Below, one piece after another: positions 58,898 through 59,146 of a DNA stretch of 64,000 nt (the first letter of the stretch is position 1; each line of letters begins with the position of its first letter). The stretch is from NCBI GenBank assembly GCA_964187785.1, contig OZ076409.1, positions 59,088,001 to 59,152,000 of the forward strand, written 5' to 3'. The translations under genes and the position numbers were made by a program. The notes beneath the pieces are model-generated. The model searched no databases. It was not told where the DNA came from and worked only from the letters and a program-made list of their open reading frames with translations. Origin of the DNA: Amphiscolops sp. MND2022. Lineage: Eukaryota.

Positions 58898-59146
58898 CTA
58901 ATACCACCACAAGAACTTATCACAGCGTTTCCCTCCGTGAAGTGGCGGACAAAGGCAACCTATAATGTTTTCTTCCACATGACTAAAACATTCTCCTTTG
59001 TTCATACAATAGTCTTTGTACTCTTCAATGCAGGGATCGGGATTTCGTCCCATTTTTTCTGTAGTCCTTACTTGATATATAAACAAGCTAGTAGTTATGA
59101 TAATAAAAAACGCTCCTATTAATACTTTTGCTAGAGTCTCACTCAT
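58898..59146 (-). CDS. EGF-like ligand with N-terminal hydrophobic segment (82 aa)
   Basis: C-x7-C-x5-C-x10-C-x-C-x8-C with YC and GKRC; residues 7-24 hydrophobic. Confidence 0.85.
   Translation of the reverse strand: MSETLAKVLIGAFFIIITTSLFIYQVRTTEKMGRNPDPCIEEYKDYCMNKGECFSHVEENIIGCLCPPLHGGKRCDKFLWWY

Follow-up and report, generated by a model that had tools for sequence, protein, structure and literature searches.

The 64,000-nucleotide stretch of DNA analysed here (the window) carries on its minus strand a short intronless gene for an EGF-like protein, which sits in a Polinton and has relatives in five Polinton families of the same genome. The gene very probably derives from an EGF-type ligand of the host lineage. 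We regard it as probably a captured virokine, which would activate the host EGFR and increase proliferation in infected and neighbouring cells; this reading is drawn from sequence comparison and is favoured with some reserve.

The initial annotation reported an intronless 82-aa ORF with a hydrophobic N-terminus and a cysteine motif. Both the ORF and the motif were found again (Table 1), and the highest 19-residue Kyte-Doolittle mean of the leader is 2.29. Residues 8-26 are predicted to be either a signal peptide or a type-II signal anchor. ErbB/EGFR ligands have the cysteine spacing CX7CX4-5CX10-13CXCX8C, and the ORF holds a single EGF module with a spacing of 7-5-10-1-8 and ends 7 residues past Cys6. 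Across all six frames of the window this six-cysteine pattern was seen a single time, and none of 200 base shuffles produced it.

A Pfam search gave no match for the ORF. A phmmer search against the PDB returned 12 matches at E<=0.1, all of them ErbB ligands or an EGF-mimicking ant peptide, with HB-EGF as the best (2.8e-6). The family profile A3, built from 13 family members, gave 32 PDB matches, 28 of which are ErbB ligands or an EGF mimic and include EGF (1.3e-9), betacellulin, HB-EGF, epiregulin, NRG1 and Spitz; the remaining four are urokinase, and no Notch or matrix EGF was found among the 32. Sequence search thus agrees with the earlier assignment to the EGFR-ligand type, and supports the view that the ORF encodes a putative ErbB-ligand-like protein rather than a generic EGF repeat. 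The AF2 model made from 33 sequences (pLDDT 82) has an EGF fold according to Foldseek and lies within 1.1 A rmsd of HB-EGF and EGF, while an earlier run with 11 close sequences (pLDDT 54) was set aside. Notch EGF repeats rank first in Foldseek and no match reaches E<=0.001; a ligand is thus not distinguished by its fold alone. The Atlas clusters closest to the ORF are EGF and epigen at 0.83-0.85, which is under 0.9 and gives a lead only.

The sequence around the gene is free of N between 58400 and 59700, and the window as a whole has 200 N, representing assembly gaps. A TCAGT motif at window 59147-59160 (minus strand), just before the EGF start, is present in all 30 top subfamily-1 loci, and we take it to be initiator-like. 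An 82-codon antisense ORF at window 58874-59122 (plus strand) overlaps the EGF gene; it is probably an antisense by-product.

Table 1. Position of the EGF-like gene and of the surrounding Polinton features in the window.
Feature	Position	Strand	Remark
82-aa EGF-like ORF, family F1 subfamily 1	58898..59146	minus	ATG to stop, intronless
Hydrophobic uncharged segment, residues 8-26	59069..59125	minus	helix in AF2 model
EGF module Cys39-Cys75, Arg74 before Cys6	58922..59032	minus	spacing 7-5-10-1-8
7-residue tail with Trp80, after Cys6	58901-58921	minus
28-31 bp AT-rich tandem repeats	58493..58875		directly 3' of EGF stop
Neighbour ORF upstream of EGF gene	59213..59572	minus
Polinton element B	49219..64000, on to window-equivalent 66554 (L031:3554)	minus	~17.3 kb
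Element B terminal inverted repeat	49219..49700
Virion module: presumed penton-, pX- and hexon-like genes and adenain-like protease, several broken	49856..52781	minus
rve integrase, one internal stop	52787..53722	minus	Pfam
A32-like packaging ATPase, stop and frameshift	54221..55046	minus	Pfam
Presumed PLA2-like gene, His-Asp motif	55871..56272	minus
Presumed protein-primed family-B polymerase region, fragmented	61771..64000	plus	runs past window end
Polinton element A, subfamily 2	34477..49221, resumes past window	plus	80-89% identical to B
Element A EGF homolog, frameshifted, one cysteine lost	43287..43528	plus

The gene lies in element B, which has terminal inverted repeats (TIRs) of about 490 bp (488 bp) that are 96% identical and start with AGTAGT, together with a matching 6-bp TSD. 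Integrase and ATPase are best recognised in a young copy (PF00665, E 6.9e-11, and PF04665, E 9.1e-7), with weaker matches in the window. The polymerase region contains the motifs KxxxNxxYG and DTDS, which we read as those of a protein-primed PolB, and has a weak match to a PHROG DNA polymerase (E 0.0046); the protease has a weak Peptidase_C5 match in the young copy (E 0.0085), and neither PolB nor the protease matched the PDB. Conserved capsid-like ORFs of 447 and 267 aa occur in the expected order, with no informative Pfam or PHROG match. The penton-, pX- and hexon-like labels in Table 1 are assumptions of ours from gene order, and the PLA2-like label is likewise presumed.

Stops or frameshifts interrupt polB, the ATPase, the integrase, the capsid-like genes and the protease of element B. 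Its core genes are decayed, and the EGF copy sits in a dead element. The ORF itself has four substitutions that are absent from 58 other subfamily-1 locus records (overlapping sets), two of them in the EGF module, and we therefore regard it as an open but drifting copy. The initial description of the gene as intact holds for the reading frame, but not for the element around it or for a sequence with four private substitutions. Element B was inserted into an older relative, element A. The homolog reported at the corresponding place in element A does exist, but it went unremarked that this copy is a pseudogene, with a frameshift within its EGF module and five of the six cysteines left.

The remainder of element A lies past the far end of element B (L031:3554-8594), with a partly duplicated virion module and the other TIR, and its polymerase-side region contains a 1.77-kb tandem duplication of 99% identity (window 38913-42454). 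Elsewhere, window 1-15768 is an LTR retrotransposon with LTRs at 1-1456 and 14314-15768 (96%) and ORFs at 889-7412 for a gag zinc knuckle, protease, RNase H and integrase. A LINE at window 19793-23629 (minus strand) has an open ORF of 946 aa for endonuclease/RT and, upstream of it, one of 274 aa, and a 316-aa ORF at window 28522-29472 (plus strand) with a weak GDSL lipase match is possibly a retroelement ORF1.

Searches of the genome gave at least 420 or so matches to the EGF gene, in five Polinton families: at least 150 each in F1 and F2, 24 in F3, 29 in F4 and 67 in F5, all of which are numbers of matches and not copy numbers. For F1, the best 150 of 629 candidates were scored; the top 101 are 83-100% identical, and most of the remaining scored matches form a second subfamily at roughly 52-79%. 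The flanks matched element B at 47 of the 47 other F1 loci examined, which bears out the initial annotation in calling the gene Polinton cargo and answers its concern that the gene might be absent from other family members. When F1 copies were picked by their upstream flank and not by the protein, 29 of 30 had kept the 82-aa frame; these copies are young, with 98-99% flank identity. The TIRs of one young F1 copy (587 bp) are 99.7% identical, and F1 was therefore active recently.

When a profile was run against 1.84 billion representatives, 102 proteins matched; many are 75-120 aa long, with a leader, an EGF module and a YGGxRCxK(F/Y)xW end. Genome searches with divergent members of this set led to F2-F5; the initial annotation had missed both the five carrier families and an identifiable host parent gene. 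The EGF modules of the other families are 43-52% identical to the window module, with saturated synonymous sites. In F2-F5 the EGF gene is the first one recognised past the left TIR, before the ATPase, integrase and virion module, and it opens the strand bearing the virion module. TIRs and matching 6-bp TSDs surround at least one copy of each family, and TSDs matched in six of the seven EGF-bearing elements checked, which span all five families. One F5 fragment of about 665 bp (L224:9734-L225:398) consists of the left TIR and the EGF gene and nothing else, and another F5 copy is partial.

The search for the EGF gene was negative in 20-kb windows at nine other ATPase loci, of which six come from four Polinton lineages and three from an unrelated element type, and both element ends lie inside only one of these windows. 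The multi-copy elements with an A32-like ATPase at L117-L122 have other ORFs that align to none of the Polinton proteins used, and we regard them as a second virus-like element type.

Relatives outside this genome are indicated by two observations. Three of the profile-search representatives (P0121, P0039 and P0052) had no genome match at strict cut-offs among the best 150 candidates each, and in three distant database proteins pieces of the upstream neighbour ORF are fused to EGF pieces. Together, the three absent representatives and the three fusion proteins make it likely that related elements carry the gene in other genomes. The fusions, which constitute the link of these relatives to Polintons, suggest that synteny may extend there. 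No relative of the EGF gene, and no record of a free virus, was found in IMG/VR, JGI metagenomes or GenBank phages, and a search for longer relatives gave one read-through Polinton protein and nothing else.

The residues that characterise receptor ligands are conserved among these proteins. Of the 102 matches 38 have the spacing, and after exclusion of eight long, cellular or toxin proteins, 30 short six-cysteine representatives were compared. An Arg precedes Cys6 in 28 of the 30, and aromatic residues stand before Cys2 and at Cys5+4 in 29 each. Trp occupies Cys6+5 in 21, and five others stop short of that position. The leaders comprise 17-34 uncharged residues, several with basic residues ahead, and their sequence is not conserved between families. 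EGF contacts domain III mainly through Arg41 and Leu47 (PMC4282322, in excerpt). By our own position mapping these correspond to Arg74 and Trp80 of the window ORF, in which the Leu47-equivalent is Trp and not Leu, as it also is in the host ligand gene described below. Binding to EGFR is proposed because these receptor-contact positions are kept.

The initial annotation had named a lack of purifying selection as a point against its own proposal; the comparisons below support purifying selection on the EGF module instead, with an estimated dN/dS of about 0.16-0.3. A comparison between the two F1 subfamilies, with 29 loci picked by flank on one side and 18 picked by protein on the other, gave the module a dS of 0.36 and a dN of 0.094, i.e., a ratio of 0.26 and a net value of 0.16, and four neighbouring genes have net values of 0-0.42. 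The N-terminal half shows no purifying selection in the same comparison (ratio 1.26, net 1.74), with its hydrophobicity kept. A second comparison used 31 distinct F1 frames, after 44 had been extracted from 48 loci and four startless ones dropped. In the module, variants common to at least three copies were poorer in amino-acid changes (N7:S9) than singletons (N36:S9; p=0.011), and the singletons are neutral (36:9 against 3.8 expected). F2, sampled as 41 copies (40 hand-picked across the best 150 matches, plus one), gave N7:S9 for shared and N28:S4 for singleton variants (p=0.004), and its leader and stalk are constrained too (p=0.043). These p-values are indicative, since the copies are not independent and the samples were partly picked by protein similarity. 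From one family to another pS runs from 0.60 to 0.93 against a pN of 0.24-0.37; with the host included, pS spans the same range and pN is 0.19-0.37. The pattern would fit elements that are under selection while active and whose copies drift once inserted.

One of the profile matches, the 237-aa type-I pro-ligand P0055 from Logan, led to a single host locus. The host gene (G000:C5:29806634-29819484) has six exons bounded by GT-AG and encodes 237 aa, with a signal-like leader, EGF module, transmembrane (TM) segment and tail, the TM segment starting about 20 residues past Cys6. Along its full length of 237 residues it shares 72.6% identity with P0055, whose database sequence is uninterrupted. Its intron between Cys4 and Cys5 is of phase 2 and follows codon 82. 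Stein and Staros characterise ErbB ligands by an intron between Cys4 and Cys5 together with a nearby TM segment (PMC1618406, in excerpt). The host gene has both of these features, and the Polinton gene has neither the Cys4-Cys5 intron nor a downstream TM segment. The EGF-type ligands of Barberan et al. include proteins with a single EGF module and no, one or two TM segments (PMC4914847, in excerpt).

For the EGF module of the host ligand, identity is 70% with F2, 48-57% with F3-F5 and 45% with the window protein; five outgroups reach 32-39%, or 25-39% in the wider estimate. The host ligand and the Polinton forms have a common YGGxRCxK(F/Y)xW-type end and group together with a support of 94/90, and the Polinton forms are without introns, transmembrane anchor and tail. 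The host C5 gene is the likely source of the Polinton gene; the search covered the best 150 candidates and was swamped by Polinton copies, so that host paralogs closer to F1 may exist. Because the intron inside the module has been lost, capture through mRNA is inferred.

Two further features of the host gene were observed. Read-through of intron 3 (exon 3/intron 3, L156:8464-8540) would stop 12 residues past Cys6, which could possibly yield a natural soluble isoform and offer a route to truncated capture. Compared with P0055, 22 of 37 residues are identical in the EGF module against 104 of 137 in the TM segment and tail (p=0.06), a larger difference in the module between the two cellular orthologues and a hint of ligand turnover under conflict.

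The EGF-bearing families do not form one clade in the integrase or hexon trees (p-AU 0.004 and 0.001), and the neighbours of F1 are two lineages that lack the gene. This pattern is compatible with repeated capture, with exchange of the gene among families, or with a single gain and at least two subsequent losses. One origin is favoured because the stop 7 residues past Cys6 is common to the families. In the 46-column EGF tree, the host ligand groups with F2 (93/90) and P0055, the ligand of another species, with the short form P0070 (96/94), and with three rows left out a single clade of short forms is marginally rejected (p-AU 0.043). Recent capture by F2 was rejected, since synonymous sites between the host gene and F2 are saturated (pS 0.86); the signal of the EGF tree is weak and could reflect convergence on the receptor.

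The receptor side of the proposal has candidates in the same genome. At least two EGFR-like host loci have exons, on C7 and C3, whose PDB matches are led by EGFR and ErbB3, with IGF1R ranking lower; on C3, a domain-IV exon follows 55 kb downstream. A homolog search found no unaltered sequence of a full host EGFR ectodomain, and a complex prediction with one domain-I exon frame of host EGFR scored 0.00, the fold of the partner being uncertain in that prediction, so that the score speaks neither for nor against binding. The secreted or anchored EGFR mimic suggested in the initial annotation appears to be supported alike by the ligand-type residues, the host EGFR genes and the signs of selection.

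The mechanism we propose would start with the ancient capture, through mRNA, of a processed copy of a type-I EGF pro-ligand of the host lineage, which would then have been cut down to a hydrophobic leader and one EGF module. The protein would enter the secretory pathway and be either secreted or tethered by its leader, acting as an agonist at the host's own EGF receptors independently of shedding. An element with nuclear replication and integration would benefit from a larger number of cycling cells. Selection would act while the element is active, and inserted copies such as the window ORF would drift. A precedent is the VGF of vaccinia virus, which stimulates EGFR/MAPK and helps the virus to replicate in resting cells (PMC8546648, in excerpt). 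A more specific version, which we consider doubtful, is that a membrane-tethered and self-limited EGF favours the division of stem or germ cells with active copies, as a growth-factor drive at the level of the cell lineage, and that the gene is refreshed from the host ligand or swapped between families as it tracks the receptor.

The conserved contact residues predict binding and not the sign of the output, and they are therefore also what would be expected of a receptor blocker or biased partial agonist that binds EGFR and dampens or reroutes wound, differentiation or defence signalling. The divergence of the modules from the host ligand (45-70% identity) and the loss of the host precursor's regulated shedding region would suit such a protein as well. 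However, the positions compared are all ligand-like, there is no added inhibitory domain, and 16 of the 30 short forms end 7-8 residues past Cys6. As a poxvirus EGF homolog also acts as an agonist (PMC8546648, in excerpt), we consider a blocker unlikely.

An attachment or tropism factor is also improbable. Here, an uncleaved type-II anchor would show the EGF module on membranes or vesicles and target EGFR-positive stem or germ cells, with signalling being secondary. This might explain why the leaders are long, several with preceding basic residues, and why the F2-F5 gene opens the virion-module strand, and nematode Mavericks have acquired a fusogen (bioRxiv 10.1101/2022.07.12.499685, in excerpt). 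On the other hand, leader sequence differs between families, and a weak test of these elements for fusogens or envelope proteins recognised none.

The hundreds of open frames, and the 82-aa frame kept in nearly all flank-picked copies, could also point to domestication, with the dispersed copies selected by the host as extra growth-factor genes. This is very unlikely, as those copies are young, private mutations are neutral, older copies decay in the same way as other element genes, and at every other F1 locus examined the gene is inside an element. A neutral passenger, i.e., a functionless fragment of a host gene, is largely refuted and has hardly any probability left: cargo capture is known for Mavericks (bioRxiv 10.1101/2022.07.12.499685 and 2025.02.07.637071, in excerpt), singleton variants are neutral and several Polinton lineages are missing the gene, but shared variants are poor in amino-acid changes in both F1 and F2, and the six cysteines and the stop position have been kept over saturated synonymous divergence. 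Another EGF-binding host partner, such as an Argos-like sink, a protease or a Notch-pathway component, is just as improbable; EGF folds are promiscuous and Foldseek ranks no ligand above Notch repeats, but the profile matches are overwhelmingly ErbB-type with none to Notch, and the host parent gene has both published ligand features. Even when taken jointly, domestication, a passenger and another partner are unlikely.

Large DNA viruses are known to encode growth factors, and here one is selected in five families of 17-19 kb Polintons, with the parent gene in the same genome as the Polinton copies. Our reading of the gene as a captured EGFR agonist suggests that Polintons steer host signalling from outside the cell, as an infectious virus or a parasite of the cell lineage would need. 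A 45-residue module and a known receptor pathway offer an assayable handle on the Polinton viral phase and on the cells it exploits. The gene is also a clean case of ligand capture, in which introns were lost, the protein was truncated where the mature ligand ends, and the sequences diverged from one element family to the next. Among the papers listed by full-text searches of the open literature, none was found to describe an EGF ligand in Polintons or adintoviruses; supplements and Repbase/Dfam annotations may contain one. The term EGF has no occurrence in the main texts of bioRxiv 2026.10.13.758929, 2022.07.12.499685 and 2025.02.07.637071, and the main text of PMC8502044 has none of EGF, growth or signal peptide.

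Host-manipulating genes in animal Polintons are represented by the accessory genes of adintoviruses, which include PLA2X, Oncoid and homologs of Bcl2 and IAP (PMC8502044, in excerpt). Oncoids are proposed there to engage Rb, a cell-intrinsic route to proliferation, whereas the Polinton EGF would act extracellularly through a receptor. The cargo of nematode Mavericks (wasp proteases, krma kinases and the mfus-1 fusogen) is likewise patchy and lies beside the left TIR, but it has kept its introns and been exchanged recently, while the Polinton EGF is intronless, anciently diverged and without a toxin or enzyme domain (bioRxiv 10.1101/2022.07.12.499685, in excerpt). Baculovirus vFGF is also a captured ligand of a receptor tyrosine kinase in a DNA virus of invertebrates; it differs in being an FGF and not an EGF, and in belonging to a large enveloped virus (PMC8546648, in excerpt).

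Cellular ErbB ligands (HB-EGF, betacellulin, epiregulin, Spitz and the host C5 gene) have the same spacing, the Arg before Cys6, the aromatic residue before Cys2 and a hydrophobic residue at Cys6+5. Unlike them, the Polinton gene has no intron, juxtamembrane shedding region, C-terminal TM segment or cytoplasmic tail, and its leader is not alignable by eye with the host signal peptide.

A close functional parallel is found in the poxvirus growth factors (vaccinia VGF, myxoma MGF and Shope fibroma SFGF), which are also virus-encoded, intronless, single-EGF homologs of ErbB ligands. MGF and SFGF are about 80-85 aa long, with a leader and no C-terminal anchor. VGF stimulates proliferation along with EGFR/MAPK (PMC8546648, in excerpt), and the leporipox factors bind ErbB3/ErbB2 or ErbB1 (PMC1618406, in excerpt). 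In contrast to the large cytoplasmic poxviruses, the carrier here is an integrating Polinton of 17-19 kb, and the gene is present in hundreds of germline copies in five families. Since the nearest cellular relative of the Polinton gene is the host's own ligand, in a comparison with cellular ligands, we infer that it was captured independently of poxviruses. Collectively, our results point to a role like that of the poxvirus growth factors, probably performed by an independently captured gene of the host lineage in a far smaller, integrating virus.
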